Origin: a virus
IMG/VR virus record: IMGVR_UViG_3300045253_000023
Span: 64,001-128,000 of that record
DNA: 64,000 bases
Strand: one strand, 5' to 3'
Shown: positions 18,880 to 60,908 of the stretch, piece by piece
How the letters are laid out: every line of letters begins with the position of its first letter
Position numbering within the stretch: position 1 is the first letter of the stretch
The notes under the pieces: generated by a model
What the model was told of the DNA's origin: nothing
Database searches by the model: none
The model's input: the letters and a program-made list of their open reading frames with translations, nothing else
Translations under genes and position numbers: made by a program

Positions 18880-18995
18880 AGGGTAGTTTCTGCATCCATA
18901 AAATCTTGTTGGTTCGACTCCAACATCTCCCGCCACTATGGGAGATGCGCCGCTTGGGCGGCACATTTGAGGTGGTGACACCTCATACTATCCTG
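18880..18995 (+). ncRNA. CAGC-handle RNA 1 (Y-RNA-like, permuted tRNA module)
   Basis: agggtagt/actatcct stem, variant TTCTGC motif; T arm, closed acceptor stem, D-like arm. Confidence 0.7.
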
Positions 18996-19189
18996 TTTTA
19001 TTGTTCCACAAGGAGTACGATATGATCGCAGGTTCAGCAGCTGGTATTCTGATTCTCATCGCATTTGTCTTGACTATTGTTGACATTGTGCGCGGCGCTT
19101 TTTCTCTGCTTCATGCTTCTGTTCTTCTTGTTGAAATTGCATTGTTGATCGGTTTCTCTGGTCCAATCTTTTTCAAATAACACAACAAC

Positions 19190-19264
19190 GCGCGATTGGG
19201 TCATTGGTTGATCACCACCTTGCCAAGGTGGATTAAATGGGTTCGATTCCCATATCTCGCTCCA
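19190..19264 (+). tRNA. tRNA-Gly(GCC)
   Basis: ccacc-TTGCCAA-ggtgg, TCCA. Confidence 0.85.
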
Positions 19265-19272
19265 AATTATAT

Positions 19273-19347
19273 GTGTCCGTAGTATAGAGGCAATTATTCC
19301 TTCCTTCCAAGTAGGAGATGTGGGTTCGATTCCCACCGGATGCTCCA
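19273..19347 (+). tRNA. tRNA-Gly(UCC)
   Basis: CTTCCAA loop, TCCA. Confidence 0.85.
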
Positions 19348-19353
19348 AAATGA

Positions 19354-19428
19354 CGCGGAATAGAGAAGTGGCATCTCGCTTGGCTCATAACCAAGAAATC
19401 GTGGGTTCGAGTCCCTCTTCCGCTACCA
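19354..19428 (+). tRNA. tRNA-fMet(CAU)-like
   Basis: CGCGG start with C1 mismatch, CTCATAA loop. Confidence 0.85.
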
Positions 19429-19480
19429 TTCACAAAGAGGCAAAATGTCCACATTGGGTTCGGCAAACAAAACAGAACCA

Positions 19481-19948
19481 GTGACATTGAAGGAATTCAT
19501 CCTCACCGAATCCTTTGAACCAGTGTCCATTCCATATGGCTTTGACTTCAAAATGAGAAACGGCAGATGGGATCATCTGGGTGGGTTTGATTACACTTTC
19601 TTCACTCTTGATGGTCTGTACTACATGGTGACATTGAAGAAGCCAAGTGGAATTGTTTCCTTTGGTACTTCAGATGAAAACACCACAGACCCAGGCTTGT
19701 ATGATCAAACACCATATCAAGCCAAAGATGCGCTACATGTTTTCAATAGCGTGATCTATGTTGCACTCCAAGGCGCCAAGAATCTCGGTTACACAAGACT
19801 CAGATTTGACGCAGCGAGCCGCGCCTTGGGTCGAGTATATGACGCAATGGTTCGCAACAAATTCTTGATCGACAAACTTGCTGGATATGGTTGGAAGTAT
19901 CTTGGCAAAGATGATGACAACAATCATATGTTTGGTCGATCCAAATAG
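19481..19948 (+). CDS. Hypothetical protein, probably head-packaged
   Basis: GTG start gives MTLKEFILTE. Confidence 0.55.
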   Translation: MTLKEFILTESFEPVSIPYGFDFKMRNGRWDHLGGFDYTFFTLDGLYYMVTLKKPSGIVSFGTSDENTTDPGLYDQTPYQAKDALHVFNSVIYVALQGAKNLGYTRLRFDAASRALGRVYDAMVRNKFLIDKLAGYGWKYLGKDDDNNHMFGRSK

Positions 19949-19954
19949 TTCAAT

Positions 19955-20030
19955 GCCCCTGTGACGGAACGGCATACGTGTCAGTCTCAAAAGCTGAATT
20001 TTGTGGGTTCGACTCCCACTTGGGGTACCA
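19955..20030 (+). tRNA. tRNA-Leu(CAA), short variable arm
   Basis: CTCAAAA loop. Confidence 0.85.
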
Positions 20031-20039
20031 AGTTTTTTT

Positions 20040-20102
20040 AGAATGCATACAGCCACCAAACCAAAGTCAAACCTGTTAAGTCTGACGACTAAATGCATTC
20101 TG
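20040..20102 (+). ncRNA. CAGC-handle RNA 2
   Basis: agaatgcat/atgcattct stem + ACAGCCACC; inner hairpin with CTGTTAA loop. Confidence 0.7.
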
Positions 20103-20110
20103 TGAGTTTT

Positions 20111-20224
20111 AGGTTGCCTACAGCAAACATTTCTATTGGTTCGACTCCAATACCTGCCGCCAAAACTGGCAAGTTCGCTCAATGGTAGAGCAATGGGCTA
20201 ATACCCCATCTAATGTGCAGCCTG
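20111..20224 (+). ncRNA. CAGC-handle RNA 3 (permuted tRNA module)
   Basis: aggttgc/gcagcct stem + TACAGC; T arm, acceptor, D arm, anticodon arm in that order. Confidence 0.78.
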
Positions 20225-20692
20225 TATTTCGTTGTCTATACATCATGAGGATATCTGATATGGTCCGTCATCTTCGTAAGGGTCGATTCGCTCTTCAGCT
20301 GCGCCGTGAAACGGCATTGAGGAATCTCAACAAGAGGATTCCACTGATTGAGCAAGAGATCGACAGATTGACCAAGGTCGGAAAGTTGACAGACATGTCA
20401 ATCCTCTTGAAGCAAGTTGATGGCAAGCACACACGTGCACTCGGTGAGAGACAATCACTGCTTCAACATGGCATCGCATAATGAGTGACTGTCCGTGGGT
20501 CGGAACTTCCAAAGAGAAGGACTGTCCTGTTGCCAAGAATGCTCCAGCCAATTGTCCATATATGAAGTCTTGTTTGTCGTTGCTTCCTCGCTTCGAACAG
20601 CAAGCCTTCCTCAACAAGAACAAACAGTCTGAGAAGTCAATCTCATCTCAGGAACTACTTGACAATCTATTGAAGTCAGGGAAACATTTATC

Positions 20693-20983
20693 ATGATGCC
20701 ACAAGTCGCTGACTTTGCCAATGGATCATTTGAGATCATTGGCGCCATCTGCAATTGGTTGAATGTTGCCACCTATTTGAAAGATCGTGTGGTGCGTGGT
20801 GTGTACTGGCCAACTTCATTCTTCTACATCGGTTGGGGTTTGTGGAATCTGTTGTATTATCCTTCGCTTGATCAGTGGTTTTCATTTGTCGGTGGTTGCT
20901 TCTTGACCGCAGGTAACATCACTTGGATCGCGTTGGTGGTCTATGACAAGGCTTTACTTTCACGCAGGACTCAGGTACAATAG
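20693..20983 (+). CDS. PQ-loop/SemiSWEET-like membrane protein
   Basis: Three hydrophobic helices, KDRVVRGVYW...WGLWNLLYY. Confidence 0.55.
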   Translation: MMPQVADFANGSFEIIGAICNWLNVATYLKDRVVRGVYWPTSFFYIGWGLWNLLYYPSLDQWFSFVGGCFLTAGNITWIALVVYDKALLSRRTQVQ

Positions 20984-21008
20984 GGTCTTGTGATACAAAC
21001 AAATCAAT

Positions 21009-21085
21009 GCACCTGTGATGTAACTGGTAAACGTGTTGGACTCAGAATCCAAATTGTGTGAGTTCGAATCTCACCAGGTGCACCA
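21009..21085 (+). tRNA. tRNA-Leu(CAG), short variable arm
   Basis: ttgga-CTCAGAA-tccaa. Confidence 0.88.
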
Positions 21086-21094
21086 AAGTTCAAT

Positions 21095-21174
21095 GCGTGC
21101 GATTGTGGGTTGGTAACTGTCTGATCAACAGTATGGTAGACCCTGAGAGTGATGAGCACTCCTCGCGCGCTCCA
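21095..21174 (+). ncRNA. Aberrant tRNA-like RNA (GAU loop, TCCA end)
   Basis: gcgtgcg/cgcgcgc stem; actgt-CTGATCA-acagt; no TTC loop. Confidence 0.5.
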
Positions 21175-21179
21175 AATAT

Positions 21180-21264
21180 GGGTTGTTGGCAGAGTGGTTA
21201 TGCACCAGACTCTTAATCTGTGACGGAAACGTCAATCTGGGTTCGATTCCCAGGCGACCCACCA
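21180..21264 (+). tRNA. tRNA-Lys(CUU) with long variable arm
   Basis: CTCTTAA loop; gacg-gaaa-cgtc variable arm. Confidence 0.85.
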
Positions 21265-21286
21265 CTATTCGTTATGAGAGGGACAA

Positions 21287-22075
21287 GTGAAGATCATCAG
21301 CAAGTTCAGAGACTTCTATGATGGAGTACAACGCACATCATTTGATGAGCATGTTCTTTACATCAGAGAAACCAAGAACATTGAATTGCAGTCTCACAAG
21401 TTTCTTCCTGTTGACCAAGACCGCTACAATGTTCTTGGAAACAGAAGTCGTTCGACATTGTTCTGCGCAGTACTCACCACGCGCAACTATGTCGCAAAGC
21501 TGGAAGGCAACCTGCTGTGTTTCTGCGGCAAGACCTACACACTGTTTCGTGTCAAGATTTACAAGAATGAATATCGATACTATGAGATGAACGACCCGAT
21601 TTGGGTTGACACTTTCCCAACATGGAAGGATGCGATGGTTTGGATTCAAACTCAAACCAATGAAGAGTTCATCATCCCAAAGTATCGAAACAAGGCAGGG
21701 CATCTTCTTGGCTATAATGAAGAAGATGCCCTGAAGGCACTTGAGACTAAGGCAAATGAGCCTTGTGATCAAGTTCATCTGGAATTCAAGAGTCCTGTCG
21801 TGTTGTTTCGTTTCAACAAGACTCGACAAATCAAAGCAAACTATTTGACACCAACGTTTGAAATTGTTGTCAACCCATGTTTGAAGGATTATCACTTCCA
21901 GCGCATCATGGATGCATATGGAACGTTTCAGGAAATCTTCATGTACCAAAGTGGAGTGCTGGCTGGTCCAGAACGTCCCATGGTGCAACTGAGCGACAAG
22001 ACCCTTATAAGTAAACATGGATTCGATGTGAAAACTTCCTTCAGGAAAGCGAAGGAAACACATCACAAAGGTTAA
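21287..22075 (+). CDS. Hypothetical protein
   Basis: 262-aa ORF MKIISKFRDFYD...HGFD.KTSFRK. Confidence 0.7.
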   Translation: MKIISKFRDFYDGVQRTSFDEHVLYIRETKNIELQSHKFLPVDQDRYNVLGNRSRSTLFCAVLTTRNYVAKLEGNLLCFCGKTYTLFRVKIYKNEYRYYEMNDPIWVDTFPTWKDAMVWIQTQTNEEFIIPKYRNKAGHLLGYNEEDALKALETKANEPCDQVHLEFKSPVVLFRFNKTRQIKANYLTPTFEIVVNPCLKDYHFQRIMDAYGTFQEIFMYQSGVLAGPERPMVQLSDKTLISKHGFDVKTSFRKAKETHHKG

Positions 22076-22080
22076 CAAGT

Positions 22081-22396
22081 GGGATGGGTACAGCACCAAA
22101 TCTAACAGAAGGCTTCGGCCATGATGTTAAACTCGGAGGCTAATTTGTGGAAGGTCCAGAAGACCTGTCTACGATGCAAGAGAACAAGAGTTGGGTTCTC
22201 CCAAGGCCATATAACAACAATGGTGTTGAAAGAGCACTATGATCTTGTCAGAGTCACAGTGGCGTGAGTGGAAGTCTGTAATCCTTCGGGTCATCAATTC
22301 TTAGTAGTTGATGTTGGATGGAAGCACATAGCACTTGAAAGAACTGAATAGGGTCCGTCACCGAAAAGACGCCTGTAAAGCCAGGAAACCATCCCG
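22081..22396 (+). ncRNA. CAGC-handle RNA 4 (316 nt)
   Basis: gggatgg/ccatccc stem + TACAGC enclosing many hairpins. Confidence 0.65.
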
Positions 22397-22411
22397 AATA
22401 CTTTTTTCAAT

Positions 22412-22488
22412 GGTGACCTAGTTGTATCTGGTGTGCATAGCTGCCTGTGAAGCAGCTGGAGAGAGTTCGATCCTCTCAGGTCACCCCA
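22412..22488 (+). tRNA. tRNA-His(GUG)
   Basis: G-1:C73, CTGTGAA loop. Confidence 0.88.
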
Positions 22489-22649
22489 AATTTTCAATGA
22501 CAAGGAGTGTCAAATGCTTACCCTCGTTCTCTGCGCTGCATCGTTTGTTGCTGGTCACGTTCTTGCTTGGCCAACCTGGCTGCAGAATGCTTGGGCCGCA
22601 ATTGTTGCAAAGTTCAGCTCAAAAGTCGAATAAGAAACACAGTTTTAAT

Positions 22650-22738
22650 GGAAGGTAAACCAGCCAGGGCGCTGGGCTTGTTTGCTAAACAAAGCGTTCG
22701 GGCAACTGAATGGTTTTCGATTAACCTGCCTTCCTCCA
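22650..22738 (+). tRNA. tRNA-Ser(GCU), 8/4 fold
   Basis: 8-bp acceptor stem, 4-bp T stem, long variable arm. Confidence 0.8.
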
Positions 22739-22745
22739 CAGTTTT

Positions 22746-22819
22746 AGGATCAATTCAGCAACCAAATCGCGGCCCACGTGGCTGCACCATGGACTGGTAG
22801 CCTCGCTACTCTGATCCTG
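22746..22819 (+). ncRNA. CAGC-handle RNA 5
   Basis: aggatca/tgatcct stem + TTCAGCAACC. Confidence 0.7.
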
Positions 22820-22827
22820 TATTTTAT

Positions 22828-22903
22828 GTTCCCTTCGTCTAGTGGTCTAGGATACCAGCCTCTCAAGTTGGGCACACGGGTTCAAATCCCGTAGGGAACA
22901 CCA
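22828..22903 (+). tRNA. tRNA-Glu(CUC)
   Basis: Canonical cloverleaf. Confidence 0.9.
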
Positions 22904-23020
22904 ATTCATAGAAAGTGAGATTCACATGTCGTTACAACATTTGTTGATCGCAGAACAAGATGGCTATACTATCCAGTCTCTGCTTGAATTTGTCATCTTC
23001 TCCTGAAGGAATTCCATATC

Positions 23021-23224
23021 ATGAGCAATGCAACTCTTCCATCCAAGTACCAACTGTTCGCTCAAGTCGCATACAAGTATGACAACAGCGATCCAGAAAC
23101 TCGTATTGGTCAGGTTGTTTCCGTCAAGTTCACTCCATCAGATGTGATTTACAATCTGGTGAATTTCAAGACAGGTGAGCTCAACGTTGATGTTCCTGAA
23201 GAGTTTGTTTCGACAATCAACTAA
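23021..23224 (+). CDS. Small SH3-like beta-barrel protein
   Basis: GQVVSVKFT..VIY; paralogue of 23436-23633. Confidence 0.55.
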   Translation: MSNATLPSKYQLFAQVAYKYDNSDPETRIGQVVSVKFTPSDVIYNLVNFKTGELNVDVPEEFVSTIN

Positions 23225-23238
23225 GTACACAACACCAC

Positions 23239-23313
23239 GCTCCAAAAGCATTAGTGGCGATGCAGTTGCCTTGTAAGCATCAGAAGAGGGTTCGATTCCT
23301 TCTTGGAGCACCA
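23239..23313 (+). tRNA. tRNA-Thr(UGU)
   Basis: CTTGTAA loop. Confidence 0.88.
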
Positions 23314-23435
23314 AATTGAAACCCTCGCTCGGCGGATCGCCTTAGATCAAGATGGCAACACTTTCTTGAAGCCTAGGACTCCGTGATCAGGTAACCAATC
23401 CTTTCCGAGCGACATCTTATTATGGAGATACACAT

Positions 23436-23633
23436 ATGTCTGGATCATTCACGTCAAACTTTGCAATCGGCGACACAGTTGTAGCATCTGTCGGTCTTAC
23501 CGAAGTTCAACATGGTGTTGTCGTTGCAGTTCGATTCACAAAGGGCAAGGTGTTCTATGACATTCTTGCTGACTATGATGCCAGGGTGTATCTCGAAATT
23601 CCATCGGATGATGTGAAAGCCTACACACCATAG
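23436..23633 (+). CDS. Small SH3-like beta-barrel protein
   Basis: FAIGDTV...GVVVAVRFT..VFY. Confidence 0.55.
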   Translation: MSGSFTSNFAIGDTVVASVGLTEVQHGVVVAVRFTKGKVFYDILADYDARVYLEIPSDDVKAYTP

Positions 23634-23756
23634 GCAACCAGTTGTGCGCATAGGCGAGTCATCGACCTGTAATTCGATGTCCTACCAGCAAACGTTATGC
23701 TGTGACCGTATGGAACAGACATGCCGCCAGGGACCGTAAGTCCCCATGAATTCAAA

Positions 23757-23833
23757 CGTGATCTGCCAGTCTGGGTGAATGGCGCAGTCTCATAAGCTGT
23801 CGAAGGTGAGTTCGAATCTCACGATCACGACCA
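23757..23833 (+). tRNA. tRNA-Met/Ile2(CAU)
   Basis: CTCATAA loop, ACCA. Confidence 0.8.
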
Positions 23834-24109
23834 CATTTATCTGGAGTTTACATTATGTCATCCGTGCCTCTCTCCAAGATTCAAGATGATGCTCCACTTG
23901 CGGCTGCCTCAGCCTCAATCTTCACAAAGCCTGTAGAAGACAAGTATGTTGGCGCTCGCCACAGCATCAAGCAAATCAAGTTGTTCCTGTCTCGTGCTAC
24001 TTCCAAGGCTGAGCGAAAGGCCATCGTGTCTCTCGCAGGTGTTGGCAAGAGGACTCATCGAAAGCACTAAATATCCTTGATAATTGACCTTGTTGAGGAT
24101 GATGACCAC

Positions 24110-24586
24110 ATGACAACTGCGGCCTGGGATGGAATTACACTTGCAGCTGATACGCTTGCAGCTGGAGAATCTGGATCATGTGAAGTAACAAAAATTCATA
24201 AGGTCAAAACCACAGGATTTGATGACCAAGAGGAAACAGTCCTATTTGTCGCGGATGGTGGACTTGAGTATGGGCCCATCATAGCACACTGGATTGCCGA
24301 GGGCATGCTAGAGGACCAAAGGCCACCCATCAAAGCCAAGTCAGACTTCCATGCGATTATCATCCGCCAGAATGGTGATGTGTATTACATGGAAGATGCG
24401 CTGGTCCCCATCAAGATTCACAACAAATTCTTCTCCATTGGTTCTGGCAACAATTATGCCATGGGAGCAATGGAAGCTGGTGCTGATGCTGAGGAATCAG
24501 TCAAAATCGCCAGCAAGTATGATCCACACACAAATGGACACATCGAAACATTGAGTTTTGAAGATTGTCCAGCTTTGTTTGTGTAA
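24110..24586 (+). CDS. HslV/proteasome-beta-like Ntn hydrolase
   Basis: N-terminal MTT..DG..LAAD; SIGSG..YAMGAM; D..T.G. Confidence 0.75.
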   Translation: MTTAAWDGITLAADTLAAGESGSCEVTKIHKVKTTGFDDQEETVLFVADGGLEYGPIIAHWIAEGMLEDQRPPIKAKSDFHAIIIRQNGDVYYMEDALVPIKIHNKFFSIGSGNNYAMGAMEAGADAEESVKIASKYDPHTNGHIETLSFEDCPALFV

Positions 24587-24593
24587 AAACAAT

Positions 24594-24670
24594 GCGTCTG
24601 TAGCTTAACTGGACAGAGACTCTGGCTTCGAACCAGAGGGGTGTGGGTTCGACTCCTGCCAGGCGCGCCA
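24594..24670 (+). tRNA. tRNA-Arg(UCG)
   Basis: tctgg-CTTCGAA-ccaga. Confidence 0.88.
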
Positions 24671-24932
24671 AGAGTTTATGCGGAAGCAGCTGGTAAGAAC
24701 AGCACGTTCAAGACCGCCATCCTGGACGTGTATGCTAAAGGGTAAGTGAGGATGGCTCACGAAAGACTAACCGCGCGTTGGTTTCCCTAAAGGTTGGCTC
24801 CCTGGGGAGTTGCTACAATTGGTGACATGGGCCGCAAGCCTGAAGAATCCAACTTCCGCCCTCTACACAACGAAACTTCTTTGACAGTCTTCAACTCAAA
24901 CATGTTTGTGCAACAAAAAGAGGAGAAGCATT

Positions 24933-25292
24933 ATGCGATCTATAATTCTATCCACAATACTTGCATTTGTCATTTCACTGGCATCTGTTTCCACACCAGC
25001 AAATGCTGGAGTTCGATTCGATGTACAAGTGCCTGTTGGTCCAGTCGTTATCTATGATGACGTTGACCTAGTTGACTCCGATGCCTGGGTTGAACCAGAA
25101 CCAGGTGTGATTATTGACTTCGGAGATTGCTGGCACTGCTATTGGAATGGTGGTTTCTGGATTGATACCCACGGACATCGTTACTTCCCACATCATGAAC
25201 GCCGAGAAGGCTTTGACCGCCATGAACATGAATGGCGCCACCATGGTGAACGACATGAGCATCGAGAATATCGAGATCATGACCGTCACTAA
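24933..25292 (+). CDS. Secreted protein with His/Arg/Glu-rich tail
   Basis: Signal peptide, YWNGGFW, HEH repeats. Confidence 0.65.
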   Translation: MRSIILSTILAFVISLASVSTPANAGVRFDVQVPVGPVVIYDDVDLVDSDAWVEPEPGVIIDFGDCWHCYWNGGFWIDTHGHRYFPHHERREGFDRHEHEWRHHGERHEHREYRDHDRH

Positions 25293-25374
25293 GTAATTGA
25301 TTTGGTGAAGTTTAATTTCGCTTTACTTTCTCCATTGACAGGCGTATAATAAGGCCATCAATGGAGAAAGTTAT

Positions 25375-25821
25375 ATGAAAGATCAAGCACTGTTGCTCGG
25401 AGAGATGATTGCTCTTGCGGCAATGGGTCACAAAGATCAGCTGGATCGTGGTGGTGCCGCATACTTCCTGCATCCGCTGCGTATTCTGTTTCGCCTGCGC
25501 ACTCGTGACAATGAGTTGATGCAAATGGCAGCAGGACATGATCTAGTGGAAGATTCAAACATCACTCTGGATCACTTGCGCGCCCTTGGATTTTCTGAGC
25601 GTGTGATTGCTGGTCTGGACTGTCTGACGCACCGTGAAGGTGAGTCATATGACGCCTACATAGATCGCATTGCAACCAATCCGGACGCAGTGCGTATCAA
25701 ACTTGAAGACCTGCGAGATAATTCTGACATCACTCGAATGAAAGGTGTCCGAGACAAAGATGTTGAACGTCTCAAGAAGTATTTCCTGGCGTTCCAGAAA
25801 TTATCTGCTCTTGTAGTGTAA
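25375..25821 (+). CDS. HD-domain (p)ppGpp hydrolase-like protein (Mesh1/SAH type)
   Basis: H.DQ.DRGG..Y..HP, HDLVED, IKLEDL.DN. Confidence 0.85.
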   Translation: MKDQALLLGEMIALAAMGHKDQLDRGGAAYFLHPLRILFRLRTRDNELMQMAAGHDLVEDSNITLDHLRALGFSERVIAGLDCLTHREGESYDAYIDRIATNPDAVRIKLEDLRDNSDITRMKGVRDKDVERLKKYFLAFQKLSALVV

Positions 25822-25901
25822 CTGGATAGCACCGACGGCCTTATACACCGTGCGCAGCCGATTACTGCCGAGCCTGAGTTCGATTCTCAGCAAGAGCACC
25901 A
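25807..25901 (+). tRNA. tRNA-Ile(UAU) with long variable arm
   Basis: CTTATAC loop; gcag/ctgc variable arm; ACCA. Confidence 0.75.
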
Positions 25902-25916
25902 CCACATGGAGTTATC

Positions 25917-26417
25917 ATGGCAACAGTGACATTGAAAGACGGAACTGTACTTGAGATATATCGCAACTACAATGACGTCAACTTTGTGATGCTGGATGAA
26001 GCAATCAAGAAAGTCAACATCCTTCGACACAAGAAAACATTCATTCAGTGGTTGTTGCGCCGTCCCGCCAAACAAATGGCATGGACACTCTTCTTCATCA
26101 AGCTGCAGGATTGGATTCAGGAACAGAATCTTGGATATTACTGCTTCAGTGAAGATCAACATCCGAACTTCGATGAAGTGTTGAAATATGGAACCTTCCT
26201 GCTTGGCGGTGTGGTTGCTGAAGCGATTGCCAAAGAACAACCATGTGTGATTGTTGACTTTCAACCAAAGGTCAACAAGGAACAAGAAATCAAGCATATC
26301 AAACCAAGAGTTGAAGACACCAAGCCTGATTTCAGACCAATGGTGGACAATGGCAAGTTCAAGATTTCAGAACTTCAACCAACAAAAGATGCGCCAAGAA
26401 TTATCTTGGCTAAGTAA
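25917..26417 (+). CDS. Hypothetical protein
   Basis: GGAG RBS, 166 aa. Confidence 0.6.
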   Translation: MATVTLKDGTVLEIYRNYNDVNFVMLDEAIKKVNILRHKKTFIQWLLRRPAKQMAWTLFFIKLQDWIQEQNLGYYCFSEDQHPNFDEVLKYGTFLLGGVVAEAIAKEQPCVIVDFQPKVNKEQEIKHIKPRVEDTKPDFRPMVDNGKFKISELQPTKDAPRIILAK

Positions 26418-26427
26418 CAAATACAAT

Positions 26428-26503
26428 GCCTGTCTCGGCGTCTGGTGATTCCATCCTCCTTACAAGTGGACACAGGTGAGTTCGATTCTCACGGCAGGTA
26501 CCA
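26428..26503 (+). tRNA. tRNA-Val(UAC)
   Basis: CTTACAA loop. Confidence 0.8.
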
Positions 26504-26511
26504 AATTCCAT

Positions 26512-26586
26512 AGTTCCTCAGCTCATCGGTAGAGCATTTGGTCGACATCCAAAAGGCGGTCAGTTCGATTCTGACAGGAACTACCA
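26512..26586 (+). tRNA. tRNA-Val(GAC), C33
   Basis: tttgg-TCGACAT-ccaaa. Confidence 0.85.
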
Positions 26587-26635
26587 TTTTACAATGTACG
26601 AGAAGAACATCTTCCTCGACATGATCAACAGTTTT

Positions 26636-26701
26636 AGGCTGTCTACAGCAACCAAGCGCCTTCGGGCACTTTCCTATCCAGGGAATCATAAGCACAGCCT
26701 G
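26636..26701 (+). ncRNA. CAGC-handle RNA 6
   Basis: aggctgt/acagcct stem + TACAGCAACC. Confidence 0.75.
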
Positions 26702-26709
26702 CTAGTTTT

Positions 26710-26802
26710 AGGATACCTACAGCCAACAATTACTGCGATTGGTTCGCAATTTGCCTTAAAAGCAAACCTAGATGGTTCAATTCCATCGTACCGCGTATCC
26801 TG
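26710..26802 (+). ncRNA. CAGC-handle RNA 7 (tRNA body with UAA loop)
   Basis: aggatac/gtatcct stem enclosing D-like, anticodon and T arms. Confidence 0.75.
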
Positions 26803-26825
26803 ATTTCTCTTATTTCAACAGTTTT

Positions 26826-27004
26826 GGAATGCCTACAGCCTATATCCGCATTTGAAGCCGAAGGTCGTGTGGTTCGATTCCCACCTGCTCCACAAGAGTG
26901 ATTTGCTCCAGTGTCATTGTCTTTCTCCAATAGTTAGCAAAATCACAGCAGATCACTCTTTTGGGGCAGTAGCTCAGTGGTAGAGCAGCGTAATGCGCAT
27001 TCCG
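26826..27004 (+). ncRNA. CAGC-handle RNA 8 (YrlA-like permuted tRNA module)
   Basis: ggaatgc/gcattcc stem; T arm, extended closed acceptor stem, canonical D arm. Confidence 0.8.
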
Positions 27005-27069
27005 TTTCTATAATGTAACCATAAGGCCACAATCCCGTGTGCCTGTTTTGATGAAAGAGGAGCATCACC

Positions 27070-28476
27070 ATGAACGCACTTTTGAATGCAATGAACCAGA
27101 CTGGTCGTACTGCGAATGGCGCAGCAACCAACTTGTCTTCGCAGTCGGCTGTTGTCGATTTGTTCTTCCTTGCTGGCGCATCACGCGGCAAAGATATCAC
27201 CAAGGCATTTGAACGTGCACTTGGCGAGAATGAAGACCTGGCAATCCGTATTCTCTTGTGGCTTCGTGATGCTCGCGAGGGTGCAGGTGAGCGTGATCAG
27301 TTCCGCAACCTGTTGAAGTATCTTGTGTCCACTGGACGCAAGGAACTCGCAGAGCGTGTGCTTGCACGTACTCCATTCCTCGGTCGTTGGGACGACGTCG
27401 TTGAGTTCCTCAATGGTGAGCTGTACCCAACTGCTGTTCGCTTGATTGAAGGCGCACTCGAGAAGCAGGACGGATTGTGCGCAAAGTGGATGCCACGTAA
27501 GGGTCTGCTTGCTGTTACATTGCGTCAGGCATTGAATCTTTCGCCAAAGCGATACCGCAAGACATTGGTCAACCTGTCCAACACTGTTGAGCAGGCAATG
27601 TGTTCTGGTGATTGGAACGACATCAACTTCTCGCATGTTCCATCGGTTGCTGCTGCGCGTTACCAGAAGGCGTTCACTCGTCATGATGGTGAGCGTTACA
27701 GTGCATATCGTGAAGAGTTGAAGAAGGCACCAGCTGATCGTGACCCAAAGGTCAAGATCAACGCAAAGGCAATCTTCCCATATGACATCGTCAAGTCTGT
27801 TCGCAGCGGCGATCGTGATGTGGCTTCAGCCCAGTGGTTGGCACTGCCAAACTTCTTGGAAGGTAGCGATGAGCGTCTGATTGTTGTCGCAGACGTTTCT
27901 GGTTCGATGAGTTCACCTGTCTCGCAGGGAACAACTGCAATGGATGTTTGTATCTCCCTGGCAATGTATCTCGCAGAGAGACTCGAAGGTCCATTCAAGG
28001 ACACATTCATCACGTTCTCGCAGCGTCCAGTGTTGCAGCGTCTGAAGGGACCATTGTACTCGCGTATTGAGCAGTTGAACAAGGCTCAGTGGGACATGGA
28101 CACCAATTTCGAGGCAGTGTTCAATCTGATTCTGAAGGCAGCGGTCGACAATGACGTTCCTCAGAGTGAGATGCCAACAAAGATTCTGGCGATCTCCGAC
28201 ATGGAGTTCAACGCATGCGGTGGATCACGCGTCAACTCGACACTGTATGACGCAATCAGCAAGAAGTACGCTTTGGCTGGTTACGAAATGCCAGGAATTG
28301 TGTTCTGGACTGTCAATGCTCGTGAGGGCAATAACCCAGTTACAATCCGTGACGCTAACACAGCGTTGGTGTCTGGTTTCTCGCCAGCGATCGTCAAGAG
28401 CGTTCTTGGTGGTAAGGACATGTCCCCAATCTCAGTGGTCCTCAAGACAGTGGGTGTGGATCGTTACAACTACTAA
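27070..28476 (+). CDS. DUF2828-family TROVE/Ro60-like protein with C-terminal vWA domain
   Basis: T.NGA, LRDAREGAGER, GRWDD, AKWMPR, VPS.A, DVSGSM, TNFEAVF, ISDMEF, IVFW, VSGFSP. Confidence 0.88.
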   Translation: MNALLNAMNQTGRTANGAATNLSSQSAVVDLFFLAGASRGKDITKAFERALGENEDLAIRILLWLRDAREGAGERDQFRNLLKYLVSTGRKELAERVLARTPFLGRWDDVVEFLNGELYPTAVRLIEGALEKQDGLCAKWMPRKGLLAVTLRQALNLSPKRYRKTLVNLSNTVEQAMCSGDWNDINFSHVPSVAAARYQKAFTRHDGERYSAYREELKKAPADRDPKVKINAKAIFPYDIVKSVRSGDRDVASAQWLALPNFLEGSDERLIVVADVSGSMSSPVSQGTTAMDVCISLAMYLAERLEGPFKDTFITFSQRPVLQRLKGPLYSRIEQLNKAQWDMDTNFEAVFNLILKAAVDNDVPQSEMPTKILAISDMEFNACGGSRVNSTLYDAISKKYALAGYEMPGIVFWTVNAREGNNPVTIRDANTALVSGFSPAIVKSVLGGKDMSPISVVLKTVGVDRYNY

Positions 28477-28491
28477 GAAGATGTAACATTC

Positions 28492-28525
28492 GTGTGGGAG
28501 CAGATCATCGCTCCCACACCTTTTC
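28492..28525 (+). terminator. Rho-independent terminator
   Basis: gtgtgggagc/gctcccacac + TTTT. Confidence 0.8.
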
Positions 28526-28543
28526 ATATAGGAGTTTGAACAT

Positions 28544-28897
28544 ATGTGTATGGTTTCAGCAGTTGGCGATTCTTGGCGTCCAATCACTCCTGGCATATGG
28601 CCATTACCAACTGGTCCGTATCCTGGTCCAGTTACTCCAAGACCAACCGTAGAACAGATTGATTCAATCTTTGATCGCATCAGCCGCGCTGAATTCGAGG
28701 CGCTGAAACGTGAGATTGAAGAACTCAAACAGCTGTTGACAGCAGCAAAGAAATTCGATGAAGCCACAGGCCAGAAAGACTGTGAGATGGAAGACAAGGT
28801 GCGCTTCCTGAAACAAATGGCAAAGCATCTGGGAGTTGATCTCAGTGATGTGTTTGATGCTAGAACCTTTGATGAAGAACCACTGATTCGCAACTGA
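28544..28897 (+). CDS. Hypothetical protein
   Basis: MCMVSAVGD...AAKKFDEATGQKDCE..K. Confidence 0.65.
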   Translation: MCMVSAVGDSWRPITPGIWPLPTGPYPGPVTPRPTVEQIDSIFDRISRAEFEALKREIEELKQLLTAAKKFDEATGQKDCEMEDKVRFLKQMAKHLGVDLSDVFDARTFDEEPLIRN

Positions 28898-28960
28898 AAA
28901 TTTCGCTTGACTTCTATATTGAATCAAGATAGAATATAGGTTCATTGATAGGAATCTGTT

Positions 28961-29470
28961 ATGAACACTTCTGAATTGGCAGCTACATCCAAACGTGATG
29001 GATATGCTACTGAAAGTTTATGTAAAGCAGTAGCATATTATGCTGGATATGATGTCGAACATACTGATCCGCATCAGAAACATGATGCTCGTTTCATTGA
29101 TCCTATTTCTCGTCAAGAATGGAAAGTTCAGATCAAGAAAGGTAGACTCAGTAAAGGTAACAAAGGATCGTTTGCTACTGTCGCAAACAAAGCTAGATAT
29201 GATCCAACTTCTGGTAGGAAAGTTCACGAAAAGATTCACTACACATCAACTCAGATTGATGCTTTCTTGACTTGGATTCCTGAGACTGGAACCTTTCATC
29301 TGATTCCATTTCATATTGCTGACAATCATTCCAAGGGAAGATTCTATTTTTCCATTGATGATTTCTTGTTTGGCAATATAACTTGTAAAGTCAAAGAATC
29401 AAACAAGAAACGAGTGTTTGCTGAACAAGAGTCAAGAAAAACCCCGAACATCTTTGATTTGGCTGACTAA
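28961..29470 (+). CDS. PD-(D/E)XK endonuclease, homing-like
   Basis: G...E, HD, KVQIK, Y....IDAF; own promoter. Confidence 0.65.
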   Translation: MNTSELAATSKRDGYATESLCKAVAYYAGYDVEHTDPHQKHDARFIDPISRQEWKVQIKKGRLSKGNKGSFATVANKARYDPTSGRKVHEKIHYTSTQIDAFLTWIPETGTFHLIPFHIADNHSKGRFYFSIDDFLFGNITCKVKESNKKRVFAEQESRKTPNIFDLAD

Positions 29471-29775
29471 GGATTCGCTATGGCGCTTGATATTGTTGTG
29501 GATGATCCACCTGTTGATTTGGTTGGTGTTGAGATCAGAGTTGGAGACACCATTGCTTTTGCCAAACGCGAAGGCAACTGTGCCACCTTGTGTCTTCGCA
29601 AGGTGCTTGAGGTTCGTTGCAAACAGGATCGATATTACAGCCACACTCATAAACAATGGGTTAGCGGCAACATTTACACCTTGTCCATATGCCCATTGAA
29701 TTCCAAATCAAAAGGCACGACACCAACTCTCAACAATGTGCTTGTTCTCAGCCGCGCAGATGGAACGAAATTGAT

Positions 29776-30102
29776 ATGAACAAAGAATTCGAAAAGACAT
29801 TCCTGACCAATACCGATGAGACAGGCCGATTCGTTGTTTCGTCTGTCAGAACTGGGCGTAAGTATTTTGTGGAAGCCATTGGTGATCCACATCGCAAATG
29901 GGGCTCAATCATCCCTGGCGATCCTTCTCACTTGGCAACCAAGAAAGGCGCAGGCAAGTATCGCGGTTCCATTGATGCTGAGAACAGCCTGATCTCTGAA
30001 GAAACTGGTTTCGTGAAGGTTCACGATCTTGAGCCTGGTATGAGTCCAATGGCCTACATTGACCATCTGGATGAACAGTATCCTGACAAACCACAAGCAT
30101 GA
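29776..30102 (+). CDS. Hypothetical protein
   Basis: FLTNTDETGRF..S.RTG..Y.VE.IG. Confidence 0.65.
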   Translation: MNKEFEKTFLTNTDETGRFVVSSVRTGRKYFVEAIGDPHRKWGSIIPGDPSHLATKKGAGKYRGSIDAENSLISEETGFVKVHDLEPGMSPMAYIDHLDEQYPDKPQA

Positions 30103-30234
30103 ATCCTTTTGTTTTCAACGAAAGGCTGACTGCCAAGTTGAATGAGATCAAGAGTCAGACATTGACTCCAGAACAAAAGAAACAAGCAGTGCATGAAGCA
30201 ATTGCATTGATGAAAGAAATTCAACAACAATTGC

Positions 30235-30307
30235 GCCCTTGCCAATAGGAATGGTGGTTGCCTCCTAAGCAACCGAGATGTGAGTTCGAGTCTCACCAAG
30301 GGCACCA
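30235..30307 (+). tRNA. tRNA-Arg(CCU), reduced D arm
   Basis: gttgc-CTCCTAA-gcaac. Confidence 0.8.
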
Positions 30308-30311
30308 ACAA

Positions 30312-30527
30312 ATTCAAGTTCCGAGCTATCGCGGGCAGTAACTCCTGTCTGAGGAAGTTCAGGACTGGCGCAAGGGACGTGTGGAAGATGGTACGGAACA
30401 TCGTTAACACCACCGTGATGATAGCCAGCAAGCCAAACAGAACTAGGGAATCTCTTGCCTATTGGTTCGGGTGGGTGCATAGTCGAATGATAGCATAAAA
30501 CAGAATCCTGGCTACGGGAACTTGAAT
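30312..30527 (+). ncRNA. rnpB: Minimal RNase P RNA
   Basis: P1, P2, P3, P4 with bulged U; GAGGAAGUUCAGGA, AGCAAG, GAAUGAUAGC, ACAGAAUCCUGGCUA. Confidence 0.85.
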
Positions 30528-30912
30528 CTCTCTTGAGGTATCCAATCATGATTGCGCGTTTGTATTTGTGGCTGTTTCCTTGGAGTTATTCTGAGAATGG
30601 ATTCAAGCGTTGGCATAAACTCTCAGGAGAATGTGAGGTTTCTTATTCCCAATGTCTCTATCCATACAAACCAATTTGGGAGAGATTTTCATGGGGCGAC
30701 AAGTAACATTGTATGATTTTCGTTGTGTTCAGATTCAGATTGGGGACGAGGTTGTTTTTGTTGATCAAAATGACTTCCGTGAAGCTGTTGTACATGACAT
30801 AACCGAGCGCGGGATTGTTGTCCTCACAAAGGATTCCCAAATGCTCACACTTGATCCTCTCAAGATTGTTGTTGTCGAGAGTTAATCAAGTCCAACACAG
30901 GAGATGTAAGAT

Positions 30913-31650
30913 ATGAATCGATTGTCAAAAATCTGTTTGTTTTTCGTTCTCGCGCTGAGCTCAGTGTTTGCTTTTGCTCAGTCCTGCCCAACCATCGCTT
31001 CAGCTGATGGCACTGTGGCGAACTTCACACAGCTGACAGGGCAGTCAAGCGTCAACTACTTCGGTGCTGGCACTGCTGTTCGTGATGTCACTTCATTCAA
31101 GTCTGTGTTCAATCTTCCAGCTGGTACAGCTGCTGAATGGCCAGGTGGCTATGGTACATTTGCCTCATTGAGTGTTCCTGGCAACAAGTATGTTTCGCTG
31201 GCGTTCAAGGTTGGCCCAAATGTGTTGCCAACAGCAGATTCACTTGCAACATCCATCTATGGTCGATACACAGTTGGTGAGAGTAGCTTTACAGCACCTG
31301 TCTCAATGACCATCAGCACTTCATGCGGTGACTTCAGCAATCCAAATGCTGCTGGTTCAACTGTTTTGAAGGGTTGTATTCTGAATCGAACCACAGCCAA
31401 CAATGGTCTTGCATGGCGCAATATTGCGAGCCAATATGGATGTCAGATTGAGAATGGCAAGTCGTATTACCTGAATCTGATCAATGCTGATATCACTGGT
31501 GTTCAACCAGGCGGCAAGGGTTCAGCAGCTTCATATTCAAACTTGACGTTTGCCAACAAGCAGAAGAATCCGCGTTGCCCAAATGGCACATGCACGATTC
31601 CAGTGTTGAATGGCTATGGCTCCTGGCCAGGCAATGTAAACCTTCCATAA
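30913..31650 (+). CDS. Secreted Cys-containing protein
   Basis: Signal peptide ending AFA; AGGAG RBS. Confidence 0.7.
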   Translation: MNRLSKICLFFVLALSSVFAFAQSCPTIASADGTVANFTQLTGQSSVNYFGAGTAVRDVTSFKSVFNLPAGTAAEWPGGYGTFASLSVPGNKYVSLAFKVGPNVLPTADSLATSIYGRYTVGESSFTAPVSMTISTSCGDFSNPNAAGSTVLKGCILNRTTANNGLAWRNIASQYGCQIENGKSYYLNLINADITGVQPGGKGSAASYSNLTFANKQKNPRCPNGTCTIPVLNGYGSWPGNVNLP

Positions 31651-31677
31651 ACGCGGAAAGTCTACAGAACCAAATTG

Positions 31678-31704
31678 ACAGGGAGCTCAGGCTCCCTGTT
31701 TTCT
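31678..31704 (+). terminator. Rho-independent terminator
   Basis: acagggagc/gctccctgt + T-run. Confidence 0.7.
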
Positions 31705-31774
31705 TGTTGGGCTTTACTTTCACTCGAAACTCAGGTATGATAGTTGAAATACAAAGGCTAAGTAGAACATCAAT

Positions 31775-31849
31775 TGGTCGCAAATCGATTGCAGCAGATA
31801 TGAGGCTTTGACCCTCAGTGACTAGGTTGGATTCCTAGGCGGCCAGCCA
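31775..31849 (+). tRNA. tRNA-Gln(UUG)
   Basis: tgagg-CTTTGAC-cctca, U1-A72, GCCA. Confidence 0.8.
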
Positions 31850-31989
31850 AATTCCATATATGAACAAGTTCAAACAATTCCTCTTCGATGATCGATATGG
31901 GCTTGCTGCCTTAGCAGCACTTGTTGGACTTGTCATCGCACTTTCGGCAATCGCTCACTATGTTGAGCATTTGCTGGGTATCAGATAAT

Positions 31990-32064
31990 TGGGGTGAGCA
32001 CAGGCGTAGGCAGAACTGCCTCTGAAGCAGTTTCTCGAAGTTTCGAATACTTCCACCCCAGCCA
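31990..32064 (+). tRNA. tRNA-Gln(CUG), irregular
   Basis: actgc-CTCTGAA-gcagt, GCCA. Confidence 0.7.
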
Positions 32065-32071
32065 ATACAAT

Positions 32072-32147
32072 TGGAGAAGAGTCGTCCAGGTGACGACAAC
32101 GGACTGTTAATCCGTGGAGGCTGGTTCGAGTCCAGCTTCTCCAGCCA
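32072..32147 (+). tRNA. tRNA-Asn(GUU)
   Basis: acgga-CTGTTAA-tccgt. Confidence 0.88.
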
Positions 32148-32156
32148 CAATTTAAT

Positions 32157-32245
32157 GGAGCGTGAACCAGCCAGGGCGCTGGAGCCGCTTGGAAAGCGTC
32201 CTGTTCGGGCAACTGAATGGTCTTCGATTGATCCGCGCTCCGCCA
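32157..32245 (+). tRNA. tRNA-Ser(GGA), 8/4 fold
   Basis: 8-bp acceptor stem, 4-bp T stem. Confidence 0.8.
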
Positions 32246-32253
32246 CAATTTAT

Positions 32254-32341
32254 GGAAGTGTAACTGTTCCGGGAACAGTCCTGCCTCGAAAACAGAGAGA
32301 ACCTGAAAGGGTTTGGGATTCGACTTCTCACATTTCCGCCA
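32254..32341 (+). tRNA. tRNA-Ser(CGA), 8/4 fold
   Basis: CTCGAAA loop, long variable arm. Confidence 0.78.
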
Positions 32342-32349
32342 AGTTTTAT

Positions 32350-32438
32350 GGAAGATGATCTGCTCTGGGAGCAGCCTTGTCTTGAAAACAAGTGGAACCA
32401 GCAATGGTTTGCAGTTCGATTCTAGCCTTCTTCCTCCA
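32350..32438 (+). tRNA. tRNA-Ser(UGA), irregular
   Basis: cttgt-CTTGAAA-acaag. Confidence 0.78.
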
Positions 32439-32447
32439 AATTATATA

Positions 32448-32530
32448 AGGATTGGTGCAGCCACCAACCAAAAGTATGCTCAAAACAACGAGCCTGTTTC
32501 ACCCCAGTAAATCCTGGGAATCCAATCCTG
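32448..32530 (+). ncRNA. CAGC-handle RNA 9
   Basis: aggattgg/ccaatcct stem + TGCAGCCACC. Confidence 0.7.
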
Positions 32531-32555: not shown

Positions 32556-33158
32556 ATGAGCACCGTGAAAAAGCCTCTGCCCAAACGCATCCTGTTTTTG
32601 GATGTTGATGGAGTTCTCAACTCCATGTGGTCCTTCCGCAACATCGGCCGCTCCTGGCCTCATTCCGATTCAAAGAAAACAGAAGCCACATACAAAACCA
32701 ACTGGATTCCTCGCGCAGTCGAGATCATCCAGAAGTTGGTCAATCATGATGAGTTCTACATTGTGATGTCATCCACATGGCGCAAGTTTGAAGACAATGC
32801 GTTCTTTGCCAAGCATCTTGGATTGCCATTGGATCGTTTCCTTGGCAACACACCTGAAGGCATTCCTGCCAATGGCAGGCTCGGAGTTGAGTACGTCATC
32901 CGTGGTCTTGAGATTGAGCACTGGTTCAAGGAAGCTATCAAGAACAAGAAGATTGATCCAAATGCCAATTACATCATCCTGGATGATGACAGCGACATGA
33001 CATTTGAGCAGAAGAAGAATCAGTTTGTCAAGACCCAGTTTGCCACCTACACTGGCAAGGATGATGAGAGCCATGGCTTGAATTGGGATCACTATGAGAT
33101 TGTGAAGACGTACATGTCTCAGTGGCCAGAGAACTCAGGTTCCCAGGCGAATAAGTAG
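32556..33158 (+). CDS. HAD phosphatase, Swiss-Army-knife RNA-repair type
   Basis: LFLDVDGVLN, SSTWR, RGLEI..W, IILDDDSDM. Confidence 0.85.
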   Translation: MSTVKKPLPKRILFLDVDGVLNSMWSFRNIGRSWPHSDSKKTEATYKTNWIPRAVEIIQKLVNHDEFYIVMSSTWRKFEDNAFFAKHLGLPLDRFLGNTPEGIPANGRLGVEYVIRGLEIEHWFKEAIKNKKIDPNANYIILDDDSDMTFEQKKNQFVKTQFATYTGKDDESHGLNWDHYEIVKTYMSQWPENSGSQANK

Positions 33159-56409: not shown

Positions 56410-56491
56410 TATCGCTTTACTTCTTCCTGAACTTCAGGTAGAATATACATCACAATTGAATTCACGTCATCACGATAGGGAGTCTATCAAC

Positions 56492-60810: not shown

Positions 60811-60838
60811 GAAGGGCAGGGCAACCTGCCCTTTCTTT
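60811..60838 (+). terminator. Terminator after tmRNA
   Basis: gaagggcagg/cctgcccttt + T-run. Confidence 0.8.
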
Positions 60839-60908
60839 GTATGTTGATCATGCTATTACAATGAATGTCTTGGTTGAGCGTTTGTCGCCGACAATTCAAA
60901 GGAAACTC

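Follow-up and report, generated by a model that had tools for sequence, protein, structure and literature searches.

The locus

The stretch of DNA analysed here, referred to as the window, is 64,000 nucleotides (nt) long and corresponds to positions 64,001–128,000 of the virus record IMGVR_UViG_3300045253_000023. Coordinates in the window are counted from its position 1. The source record is a complete genome of 161,561 bp with direct terminal repeats. Between 11.5 and 37 kb the window carries a tRNA island of 37 tRNA genes, all on the + strand (ARAGORN). Nine intergenic elements with paired ends and a gene for a protein of the DUF2828/DUF7788 type all lie within this island. An earlier sequence-only reading had proposed that the elements share a "CAGC handle" and form, together with the protein, a ribonucleoprotein of the Ro60/Y RNA kind. 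We find that they belong to a structured RNA family with a fixed handle and a free cargo, and that this family is genetically tied to a Ro60-fold protein. The nine elements are likely to be small structured RNA genes, the Y-RNA-like partners of the DUF2828-type Ro60 paralogue encoded at 27070–28476. The elements, the gene and its downstream hairpin are listed below; element coordinates include the unpaired 3′ G, and z is the z score of the minimum free energy (MFE) fold.

18880–18995, + strand: RNA 1, 116 nt; variant motif UUUCUGC; z −4.87; matched by pattern and by position weight matrix
20040–20102, + strand: RNA 2, 63 nt; minimal form, handle and a single hairpin with a 7-nt CUGUUAA loop
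20111–20224, + strand: RNA 3, 114 nt; complete circularly permuted tRNA-like body
22081–22396, + strand: RNA 4, 316 nt; multi-hairpin cargo; z −2.48
22746–22819, + strand: RNA 5, 74 nt; motif AUUCAGC; two-hairpin cargo; z −3.24
26636–26701, + strand: RNA 6, 66 nt; first of a tandem trio upstream of the gene
26710–26802, + strand: RNA 7, 93 nt; arms in the normal order of a tRNA: D-like, anticodon-like (loop CUUAAAA), T
26826–27004, + strand: RNA 8, 179 nt; z −5.26; Rfam YrlA 24.9 bits; ends 65 nt before the gene
27070–28476, + strand: DUF2828 and DUF7788 protein gene, 468 residues; Pfam PF25043 at 6.5e-52 and PF11443 at 1.9e-22
28492–28519, + strand: strong terminator-like hairpin of 10 bp, 16 nt past the DUF2828 gene
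32448–32530, + strand: RNA 9, 83 nt; motif GUGCAGC; two-hairpin cargo; z −3.18; just upstream of a HAD gene

Anatomy of the handle

The sequence confirms all nine elements on the + strand at the positions first claimed for them. The 7-nt end arms pair in every copy. Seven of the nine stems are fully Watson–Crick, and RNA 1 and RNA 3 contain one G·U pair each. The stem had been described as 7–9 bp long; seven pairs are conserved, while the extension to 8 or 9 bp occurs only in some copies. The 5′ arm is followed by the motif N-T-N-C-(A/T)-G-C and an A/C-rich, G-poor linker, and the 3′ arm is followed by a G. The range of lengths (63–316 nt), the G and T-run ahead of six elements (RNAs 2, 3, 5, 6, 7 and 8) and the 65 nt between the end of the tandem trio and the ATG at 27070 were likewise as described. 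A sharper definition of the handle is a 7-bp helix, 2 nt, (A/U)C(A/U)GC and AA.

A strict rule was written for searches: an arm RGRNTNN, the motif NTNCWGC and, within 450 nt, a paired arm (at most one G·U) with a G. It gives nine matches on the + strand of the window and none on the − strand, and no further copy in the whole 161,561-bp genome. In 60 dinucleotide-preserving shuffles of the window the mean number of matches was 0.08 and the maximum was 1. The MFE folds of all nine elements are closed by the outer 7-bp stem, with z between −1.25 and −5.26. Relatives in other genomes (see below) add features beyond the rule. An A follows the GC in 89 of 98 relatives and is itself followed by a second A; the next six positions are nearly free of G; the base preceding the helix is never C; an A-rich run stands ahead of the 3′ arm; and the final G is followed by U or A. 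Common to all lineages is a core of a 7-bp helix with G–C as its second pair, 2 nt, (A/U)C(A/U)GC, AA, the cargo, the 3′ arm and G.

Spacers of 8–9 nt separate the handle RNAs from neighbouring tRNAs and from each other, which equals the spacing between tRNAs. A promoter scan of the locus found promoter-like sites at chance level, and the handle elements have no terminators of their own. The hairpin at 28492–28519 probably ends the transcription unit of the trio and the gene.

None of the nine elements was called a tRNA at threshold by ARAGORN or Rfam, and none has the full cloverleaf with an acceptor stem and a 3′ CCA end or discriminator. The sequence-only reading had named a search of Rfam, YrlA included, as a check on itself. 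No family reaches its threshold, and searches at gathering and permissive settings yield only weak YrlA and partial tRNA matches; this check did not refute the reading. It was also right that no classical Y-RNA motif is present: GNCGAA and CGAA are absent from the handle position in the nine copies.

The DUF2828 protein

Only DUF7788 and DUF2828 are reported by Pfam for the 468-residue protein; TROVE (PF05731) is unmatched at E ≤ 0.01. A profile search of PDB sequences aligned the TROVE protein of Thermus phage phiLo over 43 residues of the von Willebrand factor A (vWA) region only (E 9e-4). A predicted structure was compared with Ro60, as had been suggested at the outset. An AlphaFold2 model from 28 homologues has a predicted local distance difference test score of 83 and a predicted template modelling (TM) score of 0.82. 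In a Foldseek search of the PDB, ranks 1–13 are all Ro60/TROVE structures (phiLo, Xenopus, human and Deinococcus Rsr), whose alignments span the full length, with E values of 2.6e-9 to 1.3e-4. The TM scores of 12 of these 13 are 0.49–0.62, and lone vWA domains rank after them. The MIDAS motif (metal-ion-dependent adhesion site; DxSxS...T...D) is intact, with D275, S277, S279, T345 and D377 invariant in the 28 homologues. As modelled, the protein is a Ro60-like helical-repeat ring with a vWA domain and an intact MIDAS.

Homologues occur in 711 phage records, and the relatives in the Protein Atlas are viral. Mycobacteriophage members are annotated "Ro-like" by SEA-PHAGES. The protein gp130 of Escherichia phage Bas63 is 43% identical to the window protein (E 9e-122).

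Linkage of the handle to the gene

We collected 80 IMG/VR loci of uncultured phages and phage DLP_6 (1.38 Mb in total), oriented with the DUF2828 homologue on the + strand. The strict rule gives 104 matches on the gene strand versus 3 on the opposite strand. Fifty-seven of the 104 fall in the 1 kb upstream of the gene, where there are 7.2 matches per 10 kb versus about 0.2 farther away (30- to 40-fold). The gene strand holds 154 5′ motifs, and for 104 of them a perfectly paired arm and G can be found within 450 nt, compared with 8 when the arms are shuffled (Fisher p 6e-33). Compensatory changes are seen in six of the seven pairs among 47 short members, but pairing was itself required by the rule with which most members had been chosen, and this inflates the covariation counts. 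The independent evidence for the helix is the test of partners versus shuffled arms together with the strand and position statistics, not the covariation table. A G·U pair occurs in 12 of 149 stems, which argues for a helix at the RNA level.

A covariance model of the 47 short members (R1) gave 76 matches on the + strand and none on the − strand of the IMG/VR loci. In a set that includes 30 independent bacterial and archaeal genome loci the strand ratio was 47:1. Gene-adjacent matches on the same strand were found in at least 12 of the 30 bacterial and archaeal assembly loci that had not been used in building. R1 misses the large-cargo members at 18880, 20111, 22081, 26826 and 32448.

The linkage was also followed in reverse. 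IMG/VR was scanned for one 14-base version of the 5′ half of the handle, and a DUF2828 homologue was sought within a short locus around each match. It was present in 14 of 23 loci with a paired arm and G versus 2 of 57 loci without a partner (p 5e-8). Enrichment of the motif near DUF2828 genes had been set beforehand as one point on which the proposal could fail; it is strong, strand-specific and visible in both directions.

At least one element was detected by the relaxed rule or by the model in 56 of the 80 IMG/VR loci, which is a lower bound. A first weight matrix, made from close relatives, demanded T at arm position 5 and motif position 2 and missed all distant lineages; the broader core was found by reading gene-adjacent gaps by eye. 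In one of the element-less loci, L074 (11434–11819), there is a seeming CGGC or CUGC variant, whose arm GGAAUGG pairs with UCAUUCC followed by G about 385 nt away. The family is thus probably wider than the search rules.

Nine whole genomes were also searched. Handles are present in all six that carry the gene (the window phage, DLP_6, Bas63, KVP40, Listeria phage LMTA-148 and MsGreen); every one of them lies on the gene strand and either close to the gene or within its tRNA island. In the whole-genome searches of T4, the T5-like Bas27 and the phi92-like Bas62, neither the DUF2828 gene nor the handle was found. In the window itself, three copies stand 65–434 nt upstream of the gene on the same strand.

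Distant lineages

The Felix O1-like coliphages wV8 and Bas63 have four copies each, with arms AGACCNN, among the tRNAs just downstream of the gene. Those of Bas63 (locus L210, 3573–3640, 3740–3798, 4195–4263 and 4282–4408) lie between annotated tRNAs. Small minus-strand coding sequences annotated as "hypothetical protein" run over plus-strand handle RNAs: bas63_0137 and bas63_0138 (L210 4249–4523, overlapping two of the Bas63 handle RNAs) and WV8_gp048 (wV8, L201 9353–9610). These three are probably mis-annotations.

KVP40 has one copy past a tRNA-Ser and another found by the model, and in Listeria phage LMTA-148 three tandem copies immediately precede the gene. The Listeria DUF2828 homologue has RtcB at a distance of 1.3 kb. 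An unannotated stretch of LMTA-148 (L203 2469–3020), 1 kb upstream of the DUF2828 gene and the handles, contains a ROOL RNA-like element that scores 90 bits (gathering threshold 99.1). Mycobacteriophage MsGreen has three tandem copies with arms UGGACNN just downstream of its "Ro-like RNA binding protein", and the middle one matches the Rfam YrlA model with 39.3 bits (E 2.7e-5).

The family extends to cellular genomes. In the cyanobacterium Aphanothece hegewaldii CCALA 016 a handle RNA stands 57 nt downstream of the gene, among ordinary metabolic genes and with no tRNA in 13 kb. The Aphanothece homologue (L236 6001–8205) has 734 residues, including about 250 extra C-terminal residues without a Pfam match. 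A Chloroflexi scaffold from a metagenome-assembled genome (MKTJ01000058.1, 522 kb) carries an island (L219 2785–7413) of 25 tRNAs, several handle RNAs, a DUF2828 gene and an HNH endonuclease, flanked by ordinary bacterial genes (peptidase M24 and a solute-binding protein). The arrangement recurs, with 26 tRNAs, on another contig of Chloroflexota (L217). Since the handle occurs beside the gene where no tRNAs are near (Aphanothece) and directly after the gene (MsGreen), its link is to the gene and not simply to tRNA arrays.

The cargoes

Between the arms, the nine RNAs differ widely. Three contain permuted tRNA-like bodies (RNAs 1, 3 and 8), two of these with GCCA in the sealing loop; such bodies are absent from the other six, which comprise one tRNA body in normal order, one single hairpin, three hairpin pairs and one 316-nt RNA. 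RNA 1 follows the YrlA order of T-arm, sealed acceptor-like hairpin (GCCA loop) and D-like hairpin, with one extra hairpin. RNA 8 has the same order, with a long sealed acceptor-like helix and a canonical D-arm. The cargo of RNA 3 runs through the T-arm, the acceptor 3′ strand, GCCA, a linker and the acceptor 5′ strand, and then the D-arm and an anticodon-like arm. It matches Rfam YrlA over the full length with 20.6 bits (gathering threshold 69) and positions 10–42 of the tRNA model with 24.1 bits. We considered circularised permuted tRNAs as working tRNAs and dropped the idea, as the joined ends would form a helix without a loop.

In RNA 7 the handle helix substitutes for the acceptor stem. 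The Rfam tRNA model aligns with its D, anticodon and T arms but no acceptor, at 27.2 bits (below the gathering threshold of 29). R1 scores RNA 7 at 26 bits and RNA 5 at 27.5 bits (E 8.5e-4), both outside the R1 training set. The R1 scores of RNA 2 (39.6 bits, E 7e-7) and RNA 6 (28.7 bits) are circular, as these are training sequences. RNA 4 has no Rfam match; DLP_6 has a 267-nt element with the same arms, GGGAUGG/CCAUCCC.

Among 149 distinct elements, 37 contain a T-loop motif (1.7 in shuffles) and 39 a 5-bp hairpin with the signature of an anticodon loop (3.1 in shuffles), although 9 of these 39 are T-loops counted twice. Two DLP_6 elements repeat the hairpin and 3′ flank of RNA 2, with arms that have undergone compensatory changes. 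Cargo alignment shows one large-cargo class conserved across seven uncultured contigs; the 316-nt window element has no detectable similarity to it in the alignment. Judged from these sequence comparisons, the cargoes are under selection of their own, as the RNA 2 hairpin is kept while its arms change and the large class is conserved. The modular cargo of the original proposal was borne out, with a range from one hairpin to a complete circularly permuted tRNA and with a related phage that keeps cargoes and changes arms.

Other features of the window

The window encodes further RNA genes and proteins, all on the + strand.

13591–14610, + strand: second vWA-domain protein, 339 residues, in the tRNA island; PF00092 2.8e-8
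22655–22742, 32155–32246, about 32253–32343 and 32350–32437, + strand: four tRNA-like genes of about 85–95 nt
30313–30526, + strand: short gene resembling RNase P RNA; matches the entire length of the Rfam archaeal RNase P model, 46.6 bits, E 1.2e-10, gathering threshold 84
32556–33158, 47648–48571, 56261–57568, 58632–60104 and 39074–40129, + strand: RNA-repair and NAD-salvage gene set
60408–60861, + strand: phage-encoded permuted (two-piece type) transfer-messenger RNA; Rfam RF04321 102 bits; ARAGORN tag peptide (60.4 kb)

No DUF2828 part is detectable in the 339-residue vWA protein. The four tRNA-like genes have CCA ends and a long extra hairpin, and anticodon-like loops GCU and GGA were read in two of them. 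ARAGORN called none of the four and reported no tRNA-Ser for the array. One of them scores 46.3 bits with the tRNA-Sec model (gathering threshold 47). They are probably unconventional serine tRNAs. The RNase P RNA-like gene, whose score is below gathering, starts 8 nt past a tRNA-like match at 30235–30304.

The gene set comprises a HAD protein (Swiss-Army-Knife RNA repair), an Rnl1-type RNA ligase, an NMNAT–Nudix fusion and NAMPT; an amino-acid:DNA transferase, also present, points to hypermodified bases. The HAD_SAK_2 gene lies directly 3′ of RNA 9, and Rnl1 is at 47.6 kb.

Relation to known systems

In Ro60/Y RNA particles, as described in PMC4201824 and PMC12135203, the protein grips the end stem and a conserved 5′-strand motif, and the other end of the RNA recruits or gates factors. 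The same papers define the Ro-binding motif on the 5′ strand as GGUCCGA, GNCGAA(N)G or CGAA. The Y RNA family RF00019 has no match at the window elements. The three upstream window copies lie on the same strand as the Ro60-like gene and within the limit of about 4 kb that is applied to Y RNAs.

YrlA (Rfam RF02553; Chen et al. 2014) shares several traits with the handle RNAs. The stem on the protein side is made by the 5′ and 3′ ends of the RNA itself, with the 5′-strand motif adjoining, and its genes, often in several copies, lie within a few kb of the Ro60-fold gene on the same strand (PMC4201824). The YrlA order of T-arm, sealed acceptor and D-arm recurs in the elements at 18880, 20111 and 26826, and one MsGreen handle RNA reaches about 39 bits with the YrlA model. 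The differences are equally clear. The motif after the 7-bp helix is NN-(A/U)C(A/U)GC-AA in the nine copies and 149 relatives, not GNCGAA(N)G, and all window copies are far below the Rfam gathering score of 69. Most window cargoes are single hairpins, acceptor-less tRNA bodies or the 316-nt RNA. The handle RNAs number up to nine per genome and are interleaved with a tRNA array, and the window protein belongs to Pfam DUF2828/DUF7788, not TROVE. Because the GNCGAA/CGAA motif, an Rfam score at threshold and a Pfam TROVE match are lacking but the architecture is present, we class the system as one of the Ro60/Y-RNA kind and not as YrlA.

Thermus phage phiLo provides a second comparison (PMC12135203; PDB 9kop, 9l5y). 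It also has a phage Ro60-fold protein with RNA genes, Yrl1 and Yrl2, directly upstream, and its Ro60 gives the best structural matches of the window model and the sole weak sequence match among solved structures. In contrast to the handle RNAs, its Yrls show the CGAA bulge in canonical form, and the protein they bind is a true TROVE protein, about 16% identical to the window protein.

In Bas63 (Escherichia phage JohannRWettstein), gp130 has been reported as a Ro60-like counter of the ppl defence, and the authors guessed that some neighbouring "tRNAs" are possibly Y RNAs (PhageMaP preprint, PMC11482910). gp130 is of the same protein family as the window protein, and the gene order is the same, with the gene heading a tRNA array. 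The partner RNAs were left unnamed in that report, whereas four handle RNAs are located here.

Dictyostelium Class I RNAs (RF01414; Kjellin et al. 2021, PMC7919456) also have a short end-joining helix; directly after the 5′ arm come 11 nt of conserved, unpaired motif, and the rest varies. They are 42–65 nt long and conserve C6, C9, A10 and A11 (PMC7919456). These positions fit the C-A-G-C-A-A spacing of the handle. Unlike the handle RNAs, the Class I RNAs have an RRM protein as known binder and are eukaryotic genes with their own promoter element. The Class I motif probably reads CCUUACAGCAA. A search with RF01414 of the whole genome at E ≤ 10 and of the trio region gave nothing at the nine elements, the best match elsewhere being 12.3 bits. 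The resemblance is a lead.

T4 rnaC and rnaD are likewise small stable RNAs annotated within a phage tRNA operon, but T4 lacks a DUF2828 gene, and the handle model finds nothing in it. In rnaD (L241 1054–1172, minus strand) ACAGCAGAAAC stands near the 3′ end and is followed by the acceptor-like GGCGCACCA. The ACAGCAG string is not at the handle position there and may be a coincidence.

Interpretation and alternatives

The handle has the same topology as the Y RNA side of the Ro60 particle, an end stem with a 5′-strand motif, and for this reason we read it as a docking site. By this analogy it is most likely the docking site of the ring protein, which would grip the helix and the ACAGC-AA strand as Ro60 grips the terminal stem and 5′-strand motif of Y RNA. 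The tRNA-like spacers of 8–9 nt, the chance-level promoters and the terminator after the gene suggest that the RNAs would be co-transcribed with tRNAs and then cut out of the tRNA transcript. Trimming may be done by tRNA-maturation enzymes that read the 7-bp helix and G as an acceptor end. The cargo, often a tRNA piece (T-arm, anticodon-like hairpin, acceptor-less body or sealed permuted tRNA), would engage factors of host or phage that bind tRNA, for example nucleases and enzymes of repair or modification. The weakest step of the proposal is what the particle is for. The particle might serve to protect the phage translation apparatus, or might serve counter-defence, to judge from the tRNA-like cargoes, the RNA-repair neighbours (HAD_SAK_2, Rnl1 and the Listeria RtcB) and the ppl phenotype of gp130.

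Several observations weigh against a partnership of this kind. gp130 by itself, whether supplied on a plasmid or carried by T7, is enough to rescue T7 on ppl and needs no phage RNA for this (PMC11482910); the RNAs may therefore be dispensable for the ppl activity of gp130, or be modulators of another activity. The Ro-binding motif GNCGAA/CGAA is absent, and the YrlA scores in the window are 20.6–24.9 bits versus a gathering score of 69. In the window, six copies out of nine are 4–8 kb from the gene, and 24 of the 80 related loci (thirty per cent) have no detected element in the available flanks. The inflated covariation counts belong here as well.

The RNAs could instead be free-acting mimics of tRNA pieces, decoys or regulators, whose handle serves maturation or stability, with the DUF2828 protein acting in the same pathway without being a stable partner, or with another handle binder. 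The enrichment of tRNA modules in the cargoes, the activity of gp130 without phage RNAs in the ppl assay (PMC11482910), the acceptor-like helix with its unpaired G and the tRNA-like spacers all suit this explanation. It does not account for the tight, strand-specific adjacency to one gene both in phages of three bacterial phyla and in cellular genomes that have no tRNA arrays, nor for the arm prefix that is uniform within each of two lineages (AGACC in Felix O1-like phages, UGGAC in MsGreen), and the fold of the protein is that of a known binder of exactly such an RNA topology; we regard it as unlikely. The position of the elements between tRNAs at tRNA-like spacing, the chance-level promoter-like sites, the lack of own terminators and the RNase P RNA-like gene at 30313–30526 would also agree with a processing or punctuation signal of tRNA operons, read by RNase P, RNase E or a phage nuclease, with DUF2828 nearby through shared tRNA islands. 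Yet the handle is absent from the three phages without the gene, of which T4 was seen to have a tRNA cluster and the T5-like and phi92-like phages presumably carry tRNA genes as well, and it occurs beside the gene where no tRNAs are near. Punctuation has no need of a conserved single-stranded ACAGC-AA or of orthologous cargoes kept as arms change; we hold this explanation to be quite improbable.

Many copies, the trio included, are directly upstream of the gene on the same strand and probably share one transcript ending at 28492–28519, as would cis-acting leaders of the DUF2828 mRNA in autoregulation or a riboswitch-like role. In MsGreen and the Felix O1-like phages, however, every copy is downstream of the gene, and six of the nine in the window are kilobases off among tRNAs; multiple copies with unrelated cargoes fit leaders poorly too, and we hold this explanation to be very improbable. 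Autoregulation through protein bound to the upstream copies is possible as a corollary of the Y-RNA-like partnership. Decayed tRNA genes or chance inverted repeats are hardly credible. T-arms and D-arms do occur in several cargoes, and many true tRNAs surround them (ARAGORN, Rfam), but nine copies were observed versus 0.08 in shuffles, the conserved handle is not tRNA-like and shows compensatory changes, many cargoes have no tRNA features, and the family is conserved across phyla. The Y-RNA-like partnership with the DUF2828 protein is the explanation we prefer.

A bolder extension, which we consider possible but doubtful, is that the helix and ACAGC-AA are a universal dock of DUF2828-type Ro paralogues in phages, giant viruses, bacteria, archaea and possibly eukaryotes. 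It would allow a programmable display of interchangeable tRNA-part cargoes, which would be decoys or adaptors for RNA-repair enzymes and for defence nucleases that target tRNAs. If this were true, the cargo repertoire would record the host defences met by the phage.

Significance

Ro60 and Y RNAs form a classic ribonucleoprotein whose function is still murky. We found no paper that pairs DUF2828 with an RNA, and the papers naming DUF2828 were unrelated; the phage table of the YrlA list of Chen et al. was outside this search. The handle explains many unannotated or mis-annotated gaps in phage tRNA islands. The counter-defence phenotype of gp130 in E. coli K-12 and the four adjacent handle RNAs make the proposal directly testable in a laboratory phage–host pair. 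DUF2828 proteins have been annotated only as "RNA-binding" or "Ro-like", and a searchable handle gives this clade candidate ligands. As many as nine RNAs, each with a different and often tRNA-derived cargo, may serve one protein.

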